From positions 330,001 to 362,000 of the forward strand of contig AE017199.1 of assembly GCA_000008085.1 (NCBI GenBank): a stretch of DNA of 32,000 nt. The letters are read 5' to 3'. Positions 3,862-30,798 of this stretch are shown piece by piece (position 1 is the stretch's first letter; each line of letters starts with the position of its first letter). The notes below the pieces were generated by a model. The model did not search any database, was not told the origin of the DNA, and saw only the letters and a list, made by a program, of their open reading frames with translations. The DNA is from Nanoarchaeum equitans Kin4-M. Lineage in GTDB: Archaea > Nanobdellota > Nanobdellia > Nanobdellales > Nanoarchaeaceae. A program made the translations under genes and the position numbers.

Positions 3862-4560
3862 ATGCGCGTAATAGTATTCTTCGTAGAGCCTGAGAAAGTT
3901 GATAACATAGGAGCAATGGCAAGGGTTTGCAAAAACTTTAATGCAGATTTATATTTAATTAACCCAAAAGTAGATAACTACGAAAAAGCCTTTGTTGTAG
4001 CAAAGCATGCCCAAGATTTATTGCAAAAAGCGATAGAGAATAAGCTAAATAGTATAGATGAAGCAAAAGAATTAGTTGATATAAGTGTGGGCACTACAGG
4101 AAAAATAGCTAACGAATACAATGTATTAAGAAGCCCTTTAAAACCATGGGAATTAGCAGAGAGGTTTGCCAATAGCGATATAAAACTTGGTATATTTATT
4201 GGAAGAGAAAGCATAGGTTTAACTAATGAAGAGCTATCAAAAATGGATTTTATTGTTACTATTCCTGCGAATAAAGAATATCCAATACTAAATGCTACCC
4301 ATGCTACAGCAATAATTTTATATGAATTATTCAAACATTCAAAAGAAGGGCATGTTAATTTAGCTTTACCAAAAAAAGAACAAATCGATGTTTTATTAGA
4401 TTATGTGAAGAAAATAATTGATAAACTGCCTCAACCAGATTATAGAAAGGAATATTATTTTATAATAATGAGAAAACTTATTACGCAAGGCATAATAAAT
4501 AGCAGGGAAGCCAATACATTAATTGGGTTTTTTAGATCTATATATGAAAATCTCAAATGA
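3862..4560 (+). CDS. SPOUT-class RNA 2'-O-methyltransferase (SpoU/TrmH, TrmJ/LasT-like)
   Basis: 232 aa. VFFVEPEKVDNIGAMARVCKNFNADLYLINPK (SpoU motif 1), IFIGRESIGLTNEEL (motif 2), and LNATHATAIILYEL (motif 3, knot). Confidence 0.75.
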   Translation: MRVIVFFVEPEKVDNIGAMARVCKNFNADLYLINPKVDNYEKAFVVAKHAQDLLQKAIENKLNSIDEAKELVDISVGTTGKIANEYNVLRSPLKPWELAERFANSDIKLGIFIGRESIGLTNEELSKMDFIVTIPANKEYPILNATHATAIILYELFKHSKEGHVNLALPKKEQIDVLLDYVKKIIDKLPQPDYRKEYYFIIMRKLITQGIINSREANTLIGFFRSIYENLK

Positions 4561-4606
4561 AGATATTGTGTGCTTCTGAACTAATGATGAAAGGAGCAGG
4601 AACAGA
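4557..4606 (+). ncRNA. C/D box sRNA (sRNA-1)
   Basis: AUGAAGA-UAUUGUGUGCUU-CUGA-ACUA-AUGAUGA-AAGGAGCAGGAA-CAGA. This is C, a 12-nt guide, D', a 4-nt spacer, C', a 12-nt guide, and D, 50 nt in total. The C box contains the UGA stop codon (4558-4560) of the upstream gene. The C(U5>A)/D(U2>A) change is compensatory at the K-turn U:U position. Confidence 0.65.
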
Positions 4607-4614
4607 TTATTAAA
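4607..4614 (+). promoter_or_regulatory. TATA box for the 4635 gene
   Basis: TTATTAAA followed by 20 nt, then the A of ATG at 4635. The box abuts the D box of sRNA-1. Confidence 0.6.
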
Positions 4615-4634: not shown

Positions 4635-4991
4635 ATGAAAGCAGCAGTAGCGTGTTACGAAAGCAATGGTGTGTATAAGCTATTCCCAACAGAGTTTGGC
4701 CATGCCCCCATATTTGTAATAGTAGACCTCGATACAAAACAAATAGTAGAAAAAAGGGAAAACCCCTATAAGGGAGAAGAATCCAAAGATAAATTCAAAA
4801 AATTAGCCGAATATTTGAAAGATGTGGATTATTTTGTAGGCAAACAATTTGGTACATCTGTTTTGAAATTAAGGCCAATGTTTAACAAAATCCCCGTAGT
4901 AGTTAATGCCGAAACCTTAGAAGAAGCAATAGAAAAACTATCTAATTCGAAAGATAAGCTAAATTTAGACAGCTATGTTATTTTGTTGTAG
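4635..4991 (+). CDS. NifB/NifX-family (dinitrogenase FeMo-cofactor-binding fold, COG1433-like) protein
   Basis: 118 aa. MKAAVA...FGHAPIFVIVDL...NP...VDYFVGKQFG...IPVV matches the pattern of small archaeal NifX-like proteins recalled from memory. Confidence 0.55.
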   Translation: MKAAVACYESNGVYKLFPTEFGHAPIFVIVDLDTKQIVEKRENPYKGEESKDKFKKLAEYLKDVDYFVGKQFGTSVLKLRPMFNKIPVVVNAETLEEAIEKLSNSKDKLNLDSYVILL

Positions 4992-5330
4992 TTTGGCCAA
5001 TTCCTCTTTTAATTCGTCTTTTATTTTATCAATATCATTTTTAAGTTTTTCAGCCTCTATTTTCAAAGAATCCAATTGTTTTGCCATCTTTTCTATGGCT
5101 TTGTCTTTGTCTATTTCTACATAATACTTAGCTCCAACTGGGACAATAACTTTGTTCGTTTCTTTTGCTTCCCCTTTGATTAGCAAACCATTAAATAATA
5201 TTAAGCCATTCCCATCTCTTAGCTCTTTTAAATATTCTATAGCTAATTCCAATTCCGCTACTCTATTTAGTATTACTTCATATTCCTTTGTAAGCTCTTC
5301 AAAGAGCAAATACTTTTCTCTTAGATCCAT
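4965..5330 (-). CDS. pfdA: prefoldin subunit (alpha-type)
   Basis: 121 aa. Coiled-coil N and C termini flank a beta-hairpin region: LILFNGLLIKGEAKETNKVIVPVGAKYYVEIDKDKAIEKM. TTTATAAA at 5358-5351 places the start on ATG 5330. Confidence 0.6.
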   Translation of the reverse strand: MDLREKYLLFEELTKEYEVILNRVAELELAIEYLKELRDGNGLILFNGLLIKGEAKETNKVIVPVGAKYYVEIDKDKAIEKMAKQLDSLKIEAEKLKNDIDKIKDELKEELAKLQQNNIAV

Positions 5331-5350
5331 TAAGAGAATAAGCCTTTTCT

Positions 5351-5358
5351 TTTATAAA
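5351..5358. promoter_or_regulatory. single palindromic TATA box shared by divergent pfdA and hef
   Basis: TTTATAAA reads the same on both strands. It lies 20 nt from 5330 (ATG of pfdA) and 20 nt from 5379 (first in-frame codon region of hef). Confidence 0.6.
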
Positions 5359-5378
5359 TGGATTTTTGTCTATAATCT

Positions 5379-7457
5379 ATCCATGGCATAGAGCCAAGAG
5401 AATACCAAAAAAGAATATTCGAGACCGCTAAAAACTATAATACATTAATAGTATTGCCAACAGGTTTAGGGAAAACAGTAATAGCGTTAATGCTAATAGA
5501 GTATTTCAAACAAAAATACCCGGATAAAAAGATATTGTTTTTAGCTCCTACAAAACCTTTGGTTAATCAACATGTGGAATTTTTAAGAAAATATAGCGAT
5601 ATAGATCCAACAAAAATAGTTGGTATAAGTGGGGACATACCAAAAGAAAAAAGGGTAAAACTTTATAATGCCGATGTTATAGTTGCAACTCCCCAAACCA
5701 TAAAAAATGATTTGGCCAATAACTTAATAGATTTGAACAAATTCTCTTTAATTATATTTGATGAAGCGCATAGGGCTGTGGGTAACTATTCTTACACATA
5801 TATAGCTCGCAATTTCAATAATAGAATTGTAGGCCTAACCGCTTCCCCTGGGAGCGATGAAGAGAAAATAAAAGAAATAATAGAAAACTTAAAAATAGAG
5901 AGAATAGAATATAGAAACGAAGATTCCTCAGATGTTAGACCTTATGTAAAGAAAAAGGTTATAAAATATATCGGGGTAGCATTAGACAAAGAAATACTTA
6001 CAGCTTCTTCTCTTATACAAGAGGCGATAGAGATAAGGAAGAAAAAATTGGAAGAGCTTGGCATATTAAAGAGAAAAATAAAGGATATTGCTTTATTAAT
6101 GGAAGAGCTAAAGAAGAAACAAGCTTATAGCTTAGATGAAAGGGTAAAAGATGCTATAATTATTGGTTCTGAAATTTTAATTTTATTCCATGCTTTGAAA
6201 ACATTGCAAACCCAAACATATAGAGCATTTCTTAAATTTTGTGAAAACCTCTTCGAAAATGCCCAGAAATTAAGTGAAAAAAATGTTGCCGAAGATGTAA
6301 GGCTAAAAAAAGCATATTTGTATGTTAAAGATTTAGTTAAACAAGGCAAAGAACATCCAAAAATTAATGCTTTGTTAGAGATAATAAAAAAGAATAAAGA
6401 CAAAAAAATTATAGTTTTTGCCCAGCTTACAGATACGGTAATGCAGATAACTGAATTATTGAACAAAAATAACATAAAAGCTGTAGCGTTTACTGGTAAA
6501 AAGCTTATGACTCAAAAAAAGCAAATAGAGACTTTAGACAAATTTAGGGCTAATATATATAATGTTTTGGTTGCTTCTTCTGTTGCAGAAGAAGGGTTAG
6601 ATATACCGAAGGTGGATTTAGTAATATTTTATGAACCTATTCCCTCTGCAATTAGGGCCATACAAAGAAAAGGTAGAACCGGCAGGTTAAACTACGGTGA
6701 AGTAATAATATTGTATTCTAAAAATACTTTAGATGAAAAAGCTCTTTGGGCCTCTATTAGAAAAGAAAAAAAGATGTATGAAATATTGGAAAAACTTTCT
6801 AAAGAGGTTAAACCAAAAAAAGAGCAAACTTTAAACGAAGTATTGGGATTTAGATATAAAATTATTGCTGACCAAAGAGAACAAAATTCTTTAGTAGTAG
6901 ATGCGTTAAAAAAATTAGGTATAGGGGTTAAAATTGAGAATTTAGAGGTTGGCGATTATATAGTTGGCGATGTAGTAATAGAAAGAAAAACTATTAGGGA
7001 TTTCGTTGATTCTATAATAGATAATAGGATATGGGATCAAATGAATAAATTATCGCAATTAGATAAAAAACTTTTAATATTGGAAGGAGAAGAAGACCCA
7101 TATTTTATTAGAGATGTTAACCCCAATGTTATAAGGAGTGTTATATTAACTTTATCCTTAAAAGGGATACCAATAATAAGAACTAAAAACCCTATTGATA
7201 CAGCTTATTACATTAAAGTTTTGTCTGAAAAACAAAATAAACTGCCACAAATACCTAAAATAAAGAAAAAAGAACTAACTCCTAAAGAGGTTTTAGCTTC
7301 TTTTCCTGGTATTGGTGAAAAGAGTGCCGAAGAGCTATTAAAAAGATACAAAACTATAAAAAATGTTGTTAATGCTTCTTTATCGGGTTTATCTATTATT
7401 TTGGGGGAAAAGCGTGCTAAGAAGCTTAAAGAATTTTTAGAGAAAGAATATCAGTAG
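5379..7457 (+). CDS. hef: Hef-type helicase-nuclease (SF2 helicase + XPF/Mus81 nuclease + HhH2); start codon unresolved
   Basis: Helicase motifs LPTGLGKT, FDEAH, TASPG, QRKGRTGR. Nuclease motif GDYIVGDVVIERKTIRDFVDSI (GDXnERKX3D). C-terminal FPGIGEKSAEELL helix-hairpin-helix. The track starts at TTG 5454, but the in-frame upstream sequence IEPREYQKRIFETAKNYNTLIV (Q-motif region) is open back to 5376. Confidence 0.85.
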   Translation: MHGIEPREYQKRIFETAKNYNTLIVLPTGLGKTVIALMLIEYFKQKYPDKKILFLAPTKPLVNQHVEFLRKYSDIDPTKIVGISGDIPKEKRVKLYNADVIVATPQTIKNDLANNLIDLNKFSLIIFDEAHRAVGNYSYTYIARNFNNRIVGLTASPGSDEEKIKEIIENLKIERIEYRNEDSSDVRPYVKKKVIKYIGVALDKEILTASSLIQEAIEIRKKKLEELGILKRKIKDIALLMEELKKKQAYSLDERVKDAIIIGSEILILFHALKTLQTQTYRAFLKFCENLFENAQKLSEKNVAEDVRLKKAYLYVKDLVKQGKEHPKINALLEIIKKNKDKKIIVFAQLTDTVMQITELLNKNNIKAVAFTGKKLMTQKKQIETLDKFRANIYNVLVASSVAEEGLDIPKVDLVIFYEPIPSAIRAIQRKGRTGRLNYGEVIILYSKNTLDEKALWASIRKEKKMYEILEKLSKEVKPKKEQTLNEVLGFRYKIIADQREQNSLVVDALKKLGIGVKIENLEVGDYIVGDVVIERKTIRDFVDSIIDNRIWDQMNKLSQLDKKLLILEGEEDPYFIRDVNPNVIRSVILTLSLKGIPIIRTKNPIDTAYYIKVLSEKQNKLPQIPKIKKKELTPKEVLASFPGIGEKSAEELLKRYKTIKNVVNASLSGLSIILGEKRAKKLKEFLEKEYQ

Positions 7458-7500
7458 TGCCCATCACTCTTCATCTCTCTGGGTAGCCGTATGTCATCAT
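7451..7500 (-). ncRNA. C/D box sRNA (sRNA-2), D' guide complementary to the 16S rRNA 3' domain
   Basis: Minus strand: AUGAUGA-CAUACGGCUACC-CAGA-GAG-AUGAAGA-GUGAUGGGCACUA-CUGA, 50 nt. The C box contains the rps5 stop codon. The D box overlaps the last sense codon of hef. The first guide is complementary to GGUAGCCGUA, the conserved archaeal 16S sequence just upstream of helix 45. Confidence 0.8.
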
Positions 7501-8192
7501 TTGTTTATTATAGAGCCTTCTGTATAGCCAGAGAACTTTATAAAGAATGGTTGTACTCTTACATTCGATAGCTTCTTCAAAGCATCGAATACTGCAAATA
7601 CATGGTTCATTTTAGTTTTGGTCTTACCGAAAGATCTAACCCAAACATCTTTTATTCCGGCCAATCTAAATATTTTCTTTATCTCATCGTCTGCAACTAT
7701 TCCTACTCCCTTTGGAGCTGGTTTTAATATAACTCTAACACTTCCGGATTTGCCCTCAACTTGGTATGGAATAGAATGGGGAGCCCCACAAGCACATTCC
7801 CAAGAACCACAACCTCTCGCAACTTTTATTATATTTAGTTTAGCTCTATTAATAGCTTTTTCTCTAGCTATCAATAAATCGGAGCTTCTTCCTAATCCAA
7901 CTCCAACATGGCCATCTTTGTCTCCTACTATGGCAATAACTTCGTATCTCGTTTTATTACCTTCAGCAGTTTTCTTTTGTGCCATTCTATATGGTTTTTT
8001 AGACCTAAACTTACCTCTTATTATACGCCATTTCATAAATTCAACCTCTAAATTTGGTAACAATACATCAACTATCTCTGGTTCTCTAATAACATATTTA
8101 TTAGATAATATCTCATCTATATTTGTTATTTTACCCTCTTTGACTAACCTGCCTAACTTGGTTTTAGGTTGCCATTCCTCTATATTAACCAT
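7497..8192 (-). CDS. rps5: 30S ribosomal protein uS5
   Basis: 231 aa. VIAIVGDKDGHVGVGLGRSSDLLIAREKAINRAKLNII and the C-terminal GIVADDEIKKIFRLAGIKDVW are typical of S5. GTTTTAAA at 8221-8214 gives a start 1 nt before the ATG. Confidence 0.9.
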   Translation of the reverse strand: MVNIEEWQPKTKLGRLVKEGKITNIDEILSNKYVIREPEIVDVLLPNLEVEFMKWRIIRGKFRSKKPYRMAQKKTAEGNKTRYEVIAIVGDKDGHVGVGLGRSSDLLIAREKAINRAKLNIIKVARGCGSWECACGAPHSIPYQVEGKSGSVRVILKPAPKGVGIVADDEIKKIFRLAGIKDVWVRSFGKTKTKMNHVFAVFDALKKLSNVRVQPFFIKFSGYTEGSIINK

Positions 8193-8222: not shown

Positions 8223-9353
8223 TTATCTAGTGATTTGCAAGTTTTTCAATTCTTCTAAATATTTGTTACCTTTTCCTTCTAAGAAATATTTTCTAGCAGG
8301 CTCTAATATTTCTATTAGCTTTTCTGCTACATACTCTTTTAAATCTAATGGATGTATTTGCTTTTTAGCATACGCTTCTTTTAATTGTTCGACATTATCA
8401 AATTCCATTGTTTGATGGGTTTTTTTGTTTTCTATTACTATGGGCTCTTTTAATATTGGATATATAACATATTCGACCAATTCTATTATTGGGTTTAGCT
8501 CTATTTCCCCTATGGGGCAATAAGCCTTTCTAATTTTTCTCCTTATATCTTCGGGAGTATCATGAATAAATATTGCAGTCTCGGGTTTAGATTTAGACAT
8601 TTTGATATCTATAACACTGTCCTCAAATAATTCCCTATTGTTTGTTTTCTTAGCCTCTAATAGTTTTTGTCTAATATTCTCATCTATATGCATTCCTAAT
8701 AATAAATGATGGTGTACAGCTATGGGCTTATAACCAAAAGCATCTGAAACCTCTATGGCTATAACATGGGCCTTCCTTTGGTCTATTCCCCCATGGGCTA
8801 AATTAACATTTAAGCTATATATATCTGCAACTTGCATAGGCACATATAATAATTGGGCGAAACTTATTGATTCTCCTTGCTTTCTTCCCATAATAGTTAT
8901 GCCCTTTTTAATTCTATTTAATGTTGTGTTCATAGAGATTTTTATTATGTTTTCTAGATATTCTATACCCAATTTCTCATACAATTCAGAGCCTAAGACT
9001 ACTTTTACTTCGTCTGGGTCTCCTCCTACAGTTTTAAGCGAAACCTTTAATGCTTCAGCGAAATAACCTTTCGCGACTTTTCTTATTGTTTCTAAATCCC
9101 CGCCTAACTTTTTATTAATCCATGAATGGTAATCCGCTAAAAATAAAGTAGTTTTAACTTTGGCTTTTTGAAAATCTCTAACTTTTAGCATAGAAATTAT
9201 TCCTGTGCCTAAATGCACAAAACCAGAGATTTCAAAACCAATGTAATGGTTTAAATCTATTCCTTGTTCTAAATATTGCTTTAACCTATCGATAGTAAGA
9301 ATTTCTTCTGTGGGCTTTTGTGCGATGAGGTTTATTCTTTCTTCTATATCCAT
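8223..9353 (-). CDS. tyrS: tyrosyl-tRNA synthetase
   Basis: 376 aa class I aaRS. HLGT (HIGH-type) and KMSKS motifs. [16 protein letters not shown] and [24 protein letters not shown] resemble archaeal TyrRS, not TrpRS. Confidence 0.85.
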
Positions 9354-9374
9354 TATTTTAAAGCGAATCCCTAA

Positions 9375-9390
9375 TTTAAAAGCCTTTAAA
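9375..9390. promoter_or_regulatory. back-to-back divergent TATA boxes (tyrS / H/ACA RNA)
   Basis: Minus-strand CTTTTAAA at 9382-9375 gives a start at 9354 (ATG 9353). Plus-strand CCTTTAAA at 9383-9390 gives a start at G9411. Confidence 0.7.
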
Positions 9391-9410
9391 TTCTTTATAT
9401 ATTATTCTAT

Positions 9411-9567
9411 GGCAAGGGACCGGCGGCCGAGAGGTGTAACCTATGACTGTCCCGTCAGGGATAGGATGAATAGGTCCCACCGCGGCCGTCGACAGCCCGG
9501 CACGAGAGTCCCCGAGTGAGAAGGCTATGGCCGTCGATGAGCTCGGGTGTTAGTGTGCGGGCAACAC
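9411..9567 (+). ncRNA. two-hairpin box H/ACA guide sRNA
   Basis: GC-rich island. Hairpin 1: a 9-bp lower stem (9421-9429/9483-9491), a pocket (AGAGGUGUAA / UCCCACCG), a 5-bp upper stem (9440-44/9470-74), a K-turn (GA 9445-46 opposite the GAU bulge plus GA at 9465-69), a 7-bp stem with a GUCA loop, and ACA at 9492-94. Hairpin 2: a lower stem (9495-9503/9555-9562), a pocket (GAGAGU / UGUUAGU), an upper stem (9511-16/9542-47), an identical GAU-GA K-turn (9536-40 opposite GA 9518-19), an apical stem with a UAUG loop, and ACA at 9564-66. Both ACA boxes lie 14-16 nt from the top of the 3' pocket strand. A T5 run follows. Confidence 0.8.
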
Positions 9568-9575
9568 TTTTTAAA
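9568..9575 (+). promoter_or_regulatory. TTTTTAAA: oligo-T terminator of the H/ACA RNA doubling as the TATA box of rpl41e
   Basis: T5 immediately follows the second ACA box. The same octamer lies 20 nt before 9596, and the ATG is at 9597. Confidence 0.6.
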
Positions 9576-9596
9576 TGTTATCTTTCTTTTTCCCCA

Positions 9597-9704
9597 ATGA
9601 AGAGATCTAGTAGGAGATGGAAAAAATATATGCAATCTCGATGGAAATGGCAGAAAAAGAGAATGAGGAGAGAAAAACGTAAAAGGAGGATGATGAGGAG
9701 ATGA
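9597..9704 (+). CDS. rpl41e: 50S ribosomal protein eL41
   Basis: 35 aa: MKRSSRRWKKYMQSRWKWQKKRMRREKRKRRMMRR. The W-x-KKRMRR-x-KRKRR core is the eL41 signature. It begins at Met28 of the 9516..9704 track ORF, whose upstream part lies inside the H/ACA RNA. Confidence 0.8.
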   Translation: MKRSSRRWKKYMQSRWKWQKKRMRREKRKRRMMRR

Positions 9705-10183
9705 AATTCTCACTAAAGGTTTTAGTTATATTCCTTTATAGTGCTTTTTTAATAACATTTCTCGATTTGTATGTTAACTATCTAAAGGGAGAAACATTTA
9801 GATATATATTTTTTGATTTGGTTGGTTATCATATATTTCCATATTTGTTTGTTTTGATAGCGCCTTGGTTACCTTTAATTATTTTCTACCCGGAAAAACT
9901 AAATATATGGATTGCCGGAATAATAGCGAGCTCTTTGATTAACGATTTGGTATGGTGTATATTTTATTCAATAGACAATTGCTTATATAGAGAATTTCTT
10001 TCAAACGATATATGGATGGTTTTAGATATAGGGATAAAAATCAAAATACCGGGGATAGCGATGCTATTTTTTAGTATAGCGAGAGTTTTGCTAATAATTT
10101 ATTTAACTAGAGAGTATCTTTTTAATTTTTTCAGGCAAATAGTCAATATAAAGTTTCCCATTAACAAACGCATAAGGGTATAG
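9701..10183 (+). CDS. hypothetical integral membrane protein
   Basis: 160 aa with 4-5 predicted TM helices. Its ATG overlaps the rpl41e stop (ATGA), suggesting translational coupling. The 3' end overlaps the convergent 1012-aa gene by 81 nt. Confidence 0.5.
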   Translation: MKFSLKVLVIFLYSAFLITFLDLYVNYLKGETFRYIFFDLVGYHIFPYLFVLIAPWLPLIIFYPEKLNIWIAGIIASSLINDLVWCIFYSIDNCLYREFLSNDIWMVLDIGIKIKIPGIAMLFFSIARVLLIIYLTREYLFNFFRQIVNIKFPINKRIRV

Positions 10184-16125: not shown

Positions 16126-16763
16126 TGCAAATGCAGATTGAAGAGCAATTAAAGATTATAGAAGATTTGGTTAAAAAATTAAATGATAGGTTAGCAGTTC
16201 CATATATATGGGAGAAAACTAAAGACCCTTTTTGGGCTTTGATCGCGACAGTTCTTTCTATAAGAACCAGGGAAGAACAAACAATTAGAGCTTCTTTAAA
16301 TTTATATAACAAATATAAAGATTATAAAAATTTGGCTAAAGCACCAATAGAGGAAATAGAAGATTTAATAAAAAATGTTGGATTGTATAAGCAGAAAGCA
16401 AAATGGATTAAAACCATAGCTCAAAGATGGGATTATAATAAAAAATGTGACGAAAGCTTTATAAGGAATTTACCTGGGGTAGGAAGAAAAGTTGGCAATG
16501 TTTATCTTAATTTAGTATGCAACAAACCCTATATAGCGGTTGATGTGCATGTCCATAGGATAGCCAATAGATTAGGTTGGGTAAAAACCAAAACCCCCGA
16601 GGAAACGGAAAAACAGTTATACAAAATAATACCCAAAGAGTATTGGCCCAAACTAAATCATATGCTTGTTTTGTTTGGGCGAAATATATGTTTACCTTCA
16701 AAGCCTAAATGTGATATTTGTCCATTAGATTGTCCCTATAAATACAATAAAAATAAACCTTGA
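16125..16763 (+). CDS. nth: endonuclease III (HhH-GPD DNA glycosylase/AP lyase)
   Basis: DPFWALIATVLSIRT, the HhH motif LPGVGRKVGNVYL, and a C-terminal four-Cys cluster CLPSKPKCDICPLDC. The start is ATG 16125 or ATG 16131; promoter spacing favours the latter. Confidence 0.85.
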   Translation: MQMQIEEQLKIIEDLVKKLNDRLAVPYIWEKTKDPFWALIATVLSIRTREEQTIRASLNLYNKYKDYKNLAKAPIEEIEDLIKNVGLYKQKAKWIKTIAQRWDYNKKCDESFIRNLPGVGRKVGNVYLNLVCNKPYIAVDVHVHRIANRLGWVKTKTPEETEKQLYKIIPKEYWPKLNHMLVLFGRNICLPSKPKCDICPLDCPYKYNKNKP

Positions 16764-29134: not shown

Positions 29135-29446
29135 ATGGAAATTATCAAAGAAGAACCAATCACTAATGAAAAAGCCTATCAAATATTGGCTAAACAAAAA
29201 CAATTATCTTATAGAGCAGAAAGAACGAAAAAGTATTTGGAAAAAATCGGTTTTATAAAGAATAGTGACGAAATATTAAAGCAATTGGTTGATTTAGGCA
29301 TAGAGTTGGAAAAAGCGATAATGATTGTAAATACTATGCCAAAAACAAACGATGAAGTAAGGGCTATATTAGAAAAAGATTACACCCCCGAAATAGGCAA
29401 AAAAGTATTAGAAATAATGAAGAAGGCTTTAAGCTCTGAAAAATGA
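29135..29446 (+). CDS. rpoF: DNA-directed RNA polymerase subunit Rpo4 (RpoF)
   Basis: 103 aa from the ATG at 29135. The track ORF starts at TTG 29117, inside the promoter. ITNEKAYQILAK..LSYRAERTKKYLEKI...AIMIVNTMPKTNDEVRAIL fits the Rpb4/RpoF pattern. Confidence 0.7.
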   Translation: MEIIKEEPITNEKAYQILAKQKQLSYRAERTKKYLEKIGFIKNSDEILKQLVDLGIELEKAIMIVNTMPKTNDEVRAILEKDYTPEIGKKVLEIMKKALSSEK

Positions 29447-29466
29447 TGACCCCTGGCAGGGACAGA
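29417..29466 (+). ncRNA. C/D box sRNA (sRNA-3)
   Basis: AUGAAGA-AGGCUUUAAGCU-CUGA-AAA-AUGAUGA-CCCCUGGCAGGGA-CAGA, 50 nt. The first half overlaps the last 10 codons of rpoF. C' contains the rpoF stop codon. The D box ends 1 nt before the stop of the convergent pepA. Box variants are the same as in sRNA-1. Confidence 0.6.
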
Positions 29467-30798
29467 TTATAGCTTTTGAACCAATTTATATAATAACCTA
29501 ACCCCAAACCCCGTTAATCCTTTGTATGCGCTTGGTATTGCCCTATTAGCTATCGCTGGCCCAGCGATATCTAAATGTAGGAATTTTTCTATAGGGCTAA
29601 ACTCTTTCAAAAATAGCCCTCCCTGGATTGCATGCGCTTCTCTCCCATTAGCATTCTTAATATCTGCTACAGCACTTTTTAATAATTCTCTATAACCTTC
29701 ATATAAAGGTAATTCCCATACCAATTCGTAGACTTCCTTTCCCGCTTCAATTGCTTTATTTACTAAATCTTTTTCCCCCATCGCTGCGGCGATTTCGTGG
29801 CCCAAAGCGATTATTTGTCCTCCTGTTAATGTTGAAACCTCTATTATGGCTTTTGGATTATATTTTGCACTATAAGCAATTGCATCTGCCAATGTTAATC
29901 TTCCTTCTGCGTCGGTATTAGTTACTTCAACAGTTTTCCCATTATAAGCCTTTATTATGTCATTAACTTTATAGGATTCTCCTGAAATAACATTTTCTGC
30001 TATAGGTATTAACGCAACTATTGGAATATCTTTTTTGTTTTTAGCTATTGCATATAGCGCCCCAATTACTGCGGCAGAACCGGACATGTCTCCATGCATA
30101 TTATACATATAATCTGTGGGCTTCAACGAATAACCTCCTGTATCAAAGGTTATTGCTTTCCCAACTAAAACAATAGGGTTGTCCTTTAAATTGTATTCTA
30201 AAATAACTAACCTTGGTTTGTATATACTGCCTTTGCCTACATAAACCAATAAGTTTAACCCTTCTCTTATTAAATCGTCGTAATGTAATACTTTTATATT
30301 TACAGGCAATCCCTTAAATATCTCGATTATTTTCTTTTCATATGTTTCAGGATTTAATACATTTGGGGGTTCGTTAGCTAAATCCCTAGCTAAATATTGT
30401 GCTTCCATTAATGTGATATATTCTTTTACCTTCTCTTTGTCATCGCAAATAAATTTTATTATTTTCTCTTGCTTTTCGCTTTTGTATCTATCAAATATAT
30501 AAGATGTAGAAAGAATCCCAATAATGGCTTTATCTTTGCTCTCTATTTCTCTTAAATCTATTATAAATTCTTTGAACGGACTATTTTTTATATATCTTCC
30601 TGCTAAGAAATAGGCTTTCCATTCGTCTTTTACATAAACTATTAGATAATCTCTATCTTTTTTTACAAAAATAGCATTATCTCTTTTAAAGAAATCTTCA
30701 TCAACATTAGCATAGCTTTTTACTGATTCCCTATCTTTAAAGAACTTTACTATCACTCCCCCATCCGCGTGGTCTGTTAAATAAAATTTGGTTGGCAT
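29467..30798 (-). CDS. pepA: leucyl aminopeptidase (M17 family)
   Basis: 443 aa. VGKAITFDTGGYSLKP and NTDAEGRLTLADAIAY active-site motifs. Confidence 0.9.
   Translation of the reverse strand: MPTKFYLTDHADGGVIVKFFKDRESVKSYANVDEDFFKRDNAIFVKKDRDYLIVYVKDEWKAYFLAGRYIKNSPFKEFIIDLREIESKDKAIIGILSTSYIFDRYKSEKQEKIIKFICDDKEKVKEYITLMEAQYLARDLANEPPNVLNPETYEKKIIEIFKGLPVNIKVLHYDDLIREGLNLLVYVGKGSIYKPRLVILEYNLKDNPIVLVGKAITFDTGGYSLKPTDYMYNMHGDMSGSAAVIGALYAIAKNKKDIPIVALIPIAENVISGESYKVNDIIKAYNGKTVEVTNTDAEGRLTLADAIAYSAKYNPKAIIEVSTLTGGQIIALGHEIAAAMGEKDLVNKAIEAGKEVYELVWELPLYEGYRELLKSAVADIKNANGREAHAIQGGLFLKEFSPIEKFLHLDIAGPAIANRAIPSAYKGLTGFGVRLLYKLVQKL

Follow-up and report, generated by a model that had tools for sequence, protein, structure and literature searches.

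Pseudouridylation of helix 69 in 23S ribosomal RNA (rRNA) is guided by box H/ACA RNAs in both Pyrococcus and Haloferax. In Pyrococcus abyssi, motif 3 of Pab40 guides modification of 23S U2016 with strong activity in vitro; stem-loop 69 has two highly conserved pseudouridines, of which this residue is one (Muller et al. 2008, PMC2377435). In Haloferax volcanii, an organism with very few guided pseudouridines, stem-loop 2 (SL2) of the two-hairpin H/ACA RNA sR-h45 forms the two pseudouridines of helix 69 within an unpaired UNUN and depends on its ACA box for this (Majumder et al. 2020, RNA 26:396). For Nanoarchaeum equitans a single H/ACA small RNA (sRNA) has been reported, 159 nucleotides (nt) long and located between NEQ389 and NEQ392 (Randau 2012, Genome Biol 13:R63, PMC3491384; Fig. 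5b and Additional file 2). Here we analyze the gene for this RNA within a 32,000-nt stretch of the N. equitans Kin4-M genome (the window, whose position 1 is genome position 330001 in published coordinates), and we propose that the second hairpin of the RNA is probably the counterpart of motif 3 of Pab40/Pf7 and of SL2 of Haloferax sR-h45, guiding pseudouridylation of the helix 69 loop in 23S rRNA.

Our starting point was a sequence-only reading of the window, which had marked a GC-rich island at 9411-9567 as a double-hairpin H/ACA pseudouridylation guide. Every structural point of that reading that could be checked is correct; the published RNA-seq data agree with it, and the HgcG/Pab40 model of Rfam matches. 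Window positions 9411-9569 on the plus strand are, letter for letter, the H/ACA sRNA sequence of Randau 2012. The proposed 5' end thus coincides with the mapped one, and the proposed 3' end stops short of the mapped transcript, which reaches 9569. The expected RNA of ~155 nt corresponds to the published 159-nt RNA-seq species, which is represented by ~10,900 reads and listed with its sequence in Additional file 2 (Randau 2012, PMC3491384). The same paper describes two ACA motifs, two identical kink-turns (K-turns), a box A promoter and a T-stretch, and later work, including H/ACA reviews, cites the RNA as the nanoarchaeal H/ACA example. Since it was published with expression data in 2012, the RNA is not new, contrary to what had been implied; our analysis concerns the same molecule, and the only new content is the reassignment of the hairpin 2 target to helix 69, in which it departs from the published target predictions. 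We consider it highly probable that the island is the gene for the single, two-hairpin H/ACA box guide sRNA of N. equitans. An identical sRNA is present at all loci with an exact match to the neighboring tyrosyl-tRNA synthetase (TyrRS) (L001-L004), each of which is N. equitans itself. The RNA and its two hairpins comprise the following elements.

9411..9569, plus strand: mature H/ACA sRNA (genome 339411-339569; the Randau table gives 339411-339574), from the published RNA-seq sequence, the GC island, the fold and Rfam
9421..9491, plus strand: hairpin 1, from the minimum free energy (MFE) and centroid folds
9421-29/9483-91, plus strand: hairpin 1 lower stem, 9 base pairs (bp), from the fold
9430-38 / 9476-82, plus strand: hairpin 1 pocket, AGAGGUGUA / CCCACCG, from fold and sequence
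9439-44/9470-75, plus strand: hairpin 1 upper stem, 6 bp, from the fold
9445-46 / 9465-69, plus strand: hairpin 1 K-turn, GA opposite GAU-GA, from sequence and fold
9447-64, plus strand: hairpin 1 apical stem-loop, 7-bp stem with a GUCA loop, from the fold
9492..9494, plus strand: ACA box 1, directly after the stem and forming the entire hinge between the hairpins, without an ANANNA H box
9495..9562, plus strand: hairpin 2, from the folds and the Rfam HgcG alignment
9495-9504/9554-62, plus strand: hairpin 2 lower stem, 9 bp with G9500 bulged, from the fold
9505-10 / 9548-53, plus strand: hairpin 2 pocket, AGAGUC / UGUUAG, from fold and sequence
9511-17/9541-47, plus strand: hairpin 2 upper stem, 7 bp, from the fold
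9518-19 / 9536-40, plus strand: hairpin 2 K-turn, GA opposite GAU-GA, from sequence and fold
9520-35, plus strand: hairpin 2 apical stem-loop, short, from the fold
9564..9566, plus strand: ACA box 2, separated from the lower stem by one nt (A9563) and lying 15 nt beyond G9549

The island stands out both by composition, with a GC content of 0.47-0.59 against about 0.28-0.33 in the flanks (windowed GC), and by its fold. The plus strand of 9405-9575 folds, with an energy of -77.5 kcal/mol, into two hairpins in succession (z = -4.25; none of 200 shuffles is as stable), whereas the minus strand of the same region is far less exceptional (z = -2.27). Folded singly, the hairpins keep their form (z = -4.64 for hairpin 1 and -3.03 for hairpin 2), and a lower stem, a pocket and an upper stem are present in both, in MFE and centroid folds, jointly and alone. 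The K-turn core attributed to both hairpins is indeed shared, consisting of GA opposite a 3-nt GAU bulge plus GA (GA 9445-46/GAUGA 9465-69 and GA 9518-19/GAUGA 9536-40), and by analogy the two K-turns are predicted L7Ae sites. Archaeal H/ACA guides follow rules of a 5-6 bp upper helix and an ACA-to-U distance of 14-15 nt (Muller 2008, PMC2377435). The upper stems here are 6 bp and 7 bp long, and the Rfam consensus for Pab40 motif 3 likewise has an upper stem of 7 bp. From the upper stem to the ACA there are 16 nt in hairpin 1 and hairpin 2 alike, and 15 nt separate G9549 from the ACA in the helix 69 pairing described below, in keeping with the ACA spacing of 14-16 nt read from the letters. The same reading had set both ACA boxes flush with the lower stems, which holds for 9492-94 and not for 9564-66, where A9563 intervenes. 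It had also assigned an internal pocket to each hairpin; both pockets are present, that of hairpin 1 being partly closed in the free RNA by GGUG/CACC. The absence of an H box from the ACA hinge was likewise remarked on by Randau 2012 (PMC3491384). Every structural feature of archaeal H/ACA guides that could be tested is present, and expression is documented in the literature.

How does hairpin 2 relate to the known helix 69 guides? The suggested covariance-model check returns the archaeal H/ACA model HgcG/Pab40 (RF00064), with 40.0 bits and E 6.9e-10 on 301 nt in E-value mode, a score below the gathering score, and with 42.4 bits and E 1.3e-8 on the whole 32-kb window, where it is the sole non-tRNA match; an Rfam scan of the region at gathering thresholds gives no match. 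Hairpin 2 aligns end to end with motif 3 of the Pab40/Pf7/Afu4 family, sharing a 10-bp lower stem that has a single bulge, a 5' guide of 6 nt, an upper stem of 7 bp, the GA...GAUGA K-turn and the ACA, and its 3' guide UGUUA is identical to that of Pab40 motif 3. There are also differences. The N. equitans RNA has two motifs rather than three; in the alignment, model motif 1 is deleted and hairpin 1 is placed on motif 2 across large gaps, and hairpin 1 is without detectable similarity to either of these motifs. In addition, the 5' guide reads GAGAGUC instead of GGUUAG, and the register on the 3' strand of helix 69 is displaced downward by 2-3 nt, so that UGUA stays unpaired instead of U or UC. 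Formally, the RNA is therefore not a member of RF00064, by score and by motif count, yet, judged by its sequence, hairpin 2 appears to behave like the helix 69 motif of that family.

The pairing of hairpin 2 with its predicted target can be described on N. equitans rRNA itself. Helix 69 was rebuilt from two overlapping C/D target strings, GGGAGTAACTGTA (1999-2011) and CTGTAACTCTCTTA (2007-2020), in Additional file 2 of Randau 2012. The rebuilt helix reads GGGAG-UAACUGUAA-CUCUC, and hairpin 2 addresses it with two guide strands.

9548..9553, plus strand: hairpin 2 3' guide, in which G9549-A9552 pair with UAAC (23S 2004-2007, helix 69 loop), from pairing scans
9504..9510, plus strand: hairpin 2 5' guide, in which G9504-U9509 pair with ACUCUC (23S 2012-2017, helix 69 3' strand) and C9510 faces A2011

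The resulting duplex, UAAC-UGUA-ACUCUC, has 4 + 6 pairs, all Watson-Crick, and leaves UGUA (2008-11) unpaired, while the ACA at 9564-66 sits 15 nt from G9549, inside the 14-15 nt rule. By alignment to the E. coli loop UAACUAUAA, we take U2008 to correspond to E. coli 1915 and U2010 to E. coli 1917. U2008 is the main predicted target; because four target nucleotides stay unpaired, U2010 may also be modified. An unbiased scan of the 23S rRNA of four relatives placed helix 69 as the top site for hairpin 2 in all four (L005, L007, L009 and L010). On the metagenome contig L010, where helix 69 reads GACUCUC, the pairing extends to 4 + 7 bp, 7 of them contiguous, a score reached by one of 200 shuffled guides. 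The helix 69 strand reads CCCUC in six of seven related 23S sequences and CUCUC in L010 and N. equitans, and since the guide GAGAG fits the N. equitans CUCUC better than the common CCCUC, this looks like co-variation of guide and target. The expectation that the pockets would match rRNA has thus been borne out for hairpin 2, at helix 69 with 4 + 6 bp, and has yielded only weak candidates for hairpin 1.

In N. equitans, 23S 1999-2017 (helix 69) appears to be a hot spot of modification, combining predicted methylations with hairpin 2 complementarity around U2008/U2010; by plexy predictions, the C/D sRNAs sRNA11 and sRNA22 methylate G2003 and U2010 (Randau 2012, PMC3491384).

Several observations weigh against the assignment of hairpin 2 to helix 69, or against a guide function of the RNA as a whole. 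The HgcG score of 40-42 bits lies below the curated gathering score of 77 bits. On L007, one of the sequences with the CCCUC variant, the score of 8.5 is attained by 99 of 200 shuffled guides, so that the score alone is not significant; what argues for helix 69 is not the size of the score but that the pairing falls on a known site with a homologous guide. The 3' guide forms a duplex of only 4 bp with helix 69 (UAAC/GUUA), although the 3' guide arm has been stressed as the more important one (Muller 2008, PMC2377435); the strongly active Pab40 motif 3 can itself form only the same 4 bp. Four unpaired target nucleotides are atypical. In Haloferax, modification was lost when the internal N was a G, an effect explained in that RNA by the ability of the G to pair with a C of the pocket. 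Helix 69 was ranked within the 23S sequences of the four relatives, and N. equitans' own rRNA was covered by the published snippets; the related 23S loci from genome contigs (L005-L008) and metagenome contigs (L009-L012) match at most 7 of 23 of these snippets. A pattern scan did not find the N. equitans helix 69 string in viral contigs, and a protein search with a 23S antisense open reading frame (ORF) carrying N. equitans-specific residues returned one unrelated protein. The stems are without covariation support because no homolog from another nanoarchaeote was found in the loci examined. Finally, none of the targets considered for hairpin 1 is convincing, and in 76% of the ensemble at 37 C its pocket strands are joined by 4 bp.

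The comparison with sR-h45 bears on the same question. Like the N. equitans sRNA, it is a two-hairpin H/ACA RNA; its 3' hairpin acts on the helix 69 loop and leaves four target nucleotides unpaired, as is predicted for hairpin 2, a likeness of architecture. The two differ in that a 56-nt linker and an AUA H-box element are found in sR-h45, whereas the ACA alone joins the N. equitans hairpins, and in that the ACA-to-U distances are 17 and 19 in sR-h45 as opposed to about 15-16 and 17-18 in N. equitans. The 5' hairpin of sR-h45 targets U2605 in GGGUUU, a site that hairpin 1 does not match.

What might hairpin 1 recognize? From its pocket we derived an ideal target, 5'-CGGUGGG-UN-UACACCUCU-3', and pocket pairing scans gave no convincing target in the 16S rRNA of L015 or in the 23S rRNA of four relatives. 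Three candidates were found among the N. equitans rRNA snippets. In the A-loop, GGUG-UU-CACC, 4 + 4 bp form around U2632 at an ACA distance of 14 nt; in the strand of helix 89 (H89) at the peptidyl transferase center (PTC) the pairing is non-canonical; and an inferred site near 1935 includes an A x A mismatch. So many registers were tried that all three lie within what chance would give. Other sites were tried and rejected: the H89/PTC site GGUGUUUGGCACCUC, where no more than 5 + 4 bp form on the sequence that N. equitans really has, GCGGUUUGAGACCUC; the counterpart of Haloferax U2605, where the GGGUUU segment reads UUC in all seven related 23S sequences and hairpin 1 has no complementarity; and the 16S 3' end and tRNA T-arms, by inspection. 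The pocket of hairpin 1 is self-complementary, GGUG (9433-36) pairing with CACC (9478-81), and the closed form accounts for 76% of the ensemble at 37 C. Hairpin 1 may address the A-loop, with U2632 (E. coli U2554) as the target beside the predicted Um2630, an arrangement that would mirror the Um-Gm-pseudouridine cluster of yeast.

The leader GGGACC (9416-9421) is complementary to GGUCCC (9473-9478), the end of the upper stem and the top of the 3' guide of hairpin 1, and the helix so formed might arise in competition with the canonical fold or block access to the pocket. The weak Rfam alignment of hairpin 1 to PyrR210 (RF02808), an atypical H/ACA-like sRNA of Pyrobaculum, uses the same helix. 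Hairpin 1 resembles these RNAs in its K-turn hairpin, G/C-rich 3' segment and ACA, but the match is not significant (16 bits, E 0.87), and hairpin 1 has a canonical 9-bp lower stem, which is missing in the Pyrobaculum type.

These features raise the alternative that only hairpin 2 guides, hairpin 1 being a degenerate or structural module, for instance a platform for assembly or stability of the ribonucleoprotein (RNP), whose pocket no longer addresses an rRNA uridine. The mutual pairing of its pocket strands, the failure of the target scans in the L015 16S and in four relatives' 23S sequences, the yield of only weak 4+4 or mismatched sites from the N. equitans snippets, and the lack of a significant Rfam match of its own all speak for such an inactive hairpin. 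However, a 4-bp pocket helix would melt at about 90 C, and the target scan covered the 23S sequences of relatives together with N. equitans snippets. Moreover, a perfect K-turn, the 6-bp upper stem, the 9-bp lower stem and a correctly spaced ACA have all been kept, and such intact anatomy in a reduced genome of 490 kb argues for function. We regard an inactive hairpin 1 as rather unlikely, albeit the alternative to be taken most seriously. Less probable still, in our estimation improbable, is that the targets predicted by RNAsnoop are the real ones, namely 16S U234 for stem 1 and 23S U614 and 16S U796 for stem 2, and that helix 69 is not a target. These sites are listed in Additional file 2 (Randau 2012, PMC3491384), but the predictions are computational only and were never validated, and unconstrained H/ACA target predictions are often wrong (Muller 2008, PMC2377435). 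We judged the two 16S sites, which look weak there, on the near-identical 16S rRNA of L015, the closest available one, in which eight of ten N. equitans 16S snippets are exact and the numbering is kept. The sequences around 234 (GAGGA-U-GGGCCGGCGGCC) and 795/796 (GCGGGC-U-A-CC) complement the GC-rich lower stems and not the pockets, and neither site is among the best pocket matches, whereas hairpin 2 shares its 3' guide with Pab40 motif 3, a helix 69 guide. The fuller proposal, in which hairpin 2 belongs to a pan-archaeal lineage of helix 69 guides, one pocket serves both pseudouridines (1915 and 1917), hairpin 1 acts on the A-loop and the RNAsnoop targets are wrong, is one that we put forward tentatively, its chances falling a little below even.

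A different alternative concerns the nature of the region itself, for which its surroundings have to be considered.

9385..9390, plus strand: box A (TATA-like) TTTAAA, 26 nt ahead of G9411, the mapped start of the sRNA, from the sequence
9568-72 (feature 9568..9575), plus strand: T5 stretch and transcript end, with the published 3' end at 9569, overlapping TTTAAA 9570-75
9570-75, plus strand: TTTAAA, likely box A of L41e, 26 nt ahead of A9596, the base that precedes the ATG
9597..9704, plus strand: rpl41e, 35 amino acids (aa), NEQ392a in the Randau table, a full-length match to archaeal L41e chains; a neighboring gene and not part of the RNA
9701-10183, plus strand: NEQ392, from a protein match
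8223-9353, minus strand: NEQ389, tyrosyl-tRNA synthetase, 376 aa, an exact protein match
7497-8192, minus strand: NEQ388, uS5, from a protein match

The presence of a box A 26 nt upstream of the start was reported for the H/ACA sRNA (Randau 2012, PMC3491384). At the other end, the proposal that the T5 terminator doubles as the TATA box of rpl41e is supported by the overlap of TTTAAA with the T-run, the 26-nt spacing and the L41e match, and a shared terminator/promoter for the sRNA and L41e is a reasonable idea; with TTTAAA lying 26 nt before A9596, the L41e mRNA would be leaderless. The L41e ORF is unrecognized by Pfam and NCBIfam, and in solved ribosome structures it matches 6skf_Bk with E 0.0035, all 21 of 21 matches being eL41/eS32. 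Could the region then encode small proteins (9310-9519 and 9516-9704 on the plus strand, 9525-9713 on the minus strand), or represent a structured 5' leader or terminator of its neighbors? The three ORFs do exist mechanically in the ORF list, but they owe their length to the GC island, none of the three products occurs in a collection of about 15 billion proteins, and the genuine coding part of ORF 9516-9704 is the L41e portion, 9597-9704, only. Since published RNA-seq data also document a discrete, abundant 159-nt RNA with its own promoter and T-stretch, we give this explanation next to no credence. The sequence-only reading had likewise called the three ORFs spurious, in which it was right, and had described the RNA as hidden beneath them, in which it was not, as no annotated protein of the public collection searched corresponds to them. 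A box C/D sRNA was also considered and rejected: the GAUGA elements lie inside the hairpins opposite GA, without terminal C/D pairing, and there is no C/D family match over the region.

In conjunction with the published expression data, we propose the following model for an H/ACA guide in which hairpin 2 addresses helix 69. Driven by a box A promoter of its own, transcription of the sRNA would begin at G9411 and end in the T-stretch at 9569, giving a molecule in which two H/ACA hairpins are joined by the ACA alone. By analogy with characterized archaeal H/ACA RNPs, L7Ae would be bound by the K-turn of each hairpin, and Cbf5-Nop10-Gar1 would contact the lower stem and the ACA. Each pocket would then base-pair with the rRNA sequences flanking a uridine, for isomerization of that uridine to pseudouridine by Cbf5. 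NEQ454 is listed under COG0130, as a pseudouridine synthase of rRNA and of Cbf5/TruB type (Randau 2012 table, PMC3491384), while a partial scan, of ten window ORFs against Pfam, detected none of Cbf5, Nop10, Gar1 and L7Ae.

The search for relatives of the locus yielded further observations. The four closest TyrRS relatives (L015-L018, 72-75% identity) are without conserved synteny and give no H/ACA match at E <= 0.01 and no helix-69-guide motif; a homologous sRNA was found neither near their TyrRS genes nor in any other locus examined. In L015, whose TyrRS is 75% identical, the 16S gene (4941-7137, minus strand) is interrupted after about position 880 by ~698 nt of AT-rich sequence that looks like an intron, possibly with a homing endonuclease. 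About 200 nt upstream of it, on the same strand, lies an H/ACA-like hairpin (7330-7390, minus strand; fold z = -2.9). Its lower stem, CCGUGGGU/ACCCACGG, has 8 bp and its upper stem 6 bp, the pocket is AGCUCG/UAUCC and the loop, UGAUGUAAUGAG, is K-loop-like; GC-ACA follows, 15 nt from the top of the pocket. L017, a relative with 74% TyrRS identity, contains at 16185-16240 on the plus strand an isolated GC-rich segment, GTGACCCGGGTTCGAATCCCGGCCGCCGCA, that resembles a tRNA 3' half and suggests split tRNA genes in this relative of N. equitans.

The 23S genes of L005-L011, which comprise Nanoclepta, Nanopusillaceae, a metagenome-assembled genome labeled Aenigmatarchaeota and metagenome contigs, are unlinked and lie in a conserved order of FlaI-like ATPase, 23S, RNase P RNA (L009 and L011), prolyl-tRNA synthetase (ProRS), a 143-152-aa protein and MinD. 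None of these 23S neighbors (ProRS, the 143-aa protein, MinD, the FlaI-like ATPase) was found in the window. The PTC-proximal 23S of the same loci is unusually divergent, for example GGGUUCAG against E. coli GGGUUUAG. Within the window itself, the C/D sRNAs sRNA17, sRNA18 and sRNA19 of Randau 2012 match exactly at 4552-4611 (plus strand), 7448-7505 (minus strand) and 29412-29470 (plus strand), and Rfam at E <= 0.05 detects none of the three.

What does the assignment of hairpin 2 to helix 69 imply? At the level of method, the RNA serves as a positive control, showing that a genuine H/ACA guide can be found, and its anatomy correctly described, by reading raw sequence. For the organism, it suggests that a genome of 490 kb may keep its H/ACA machinery at least partly for the modification of helix 69. 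That helix 69 is also guided in Pyrococcus and Haloferax fits a view of this helix as the conserved core of archaeal RNA-guided pseudouridylation.

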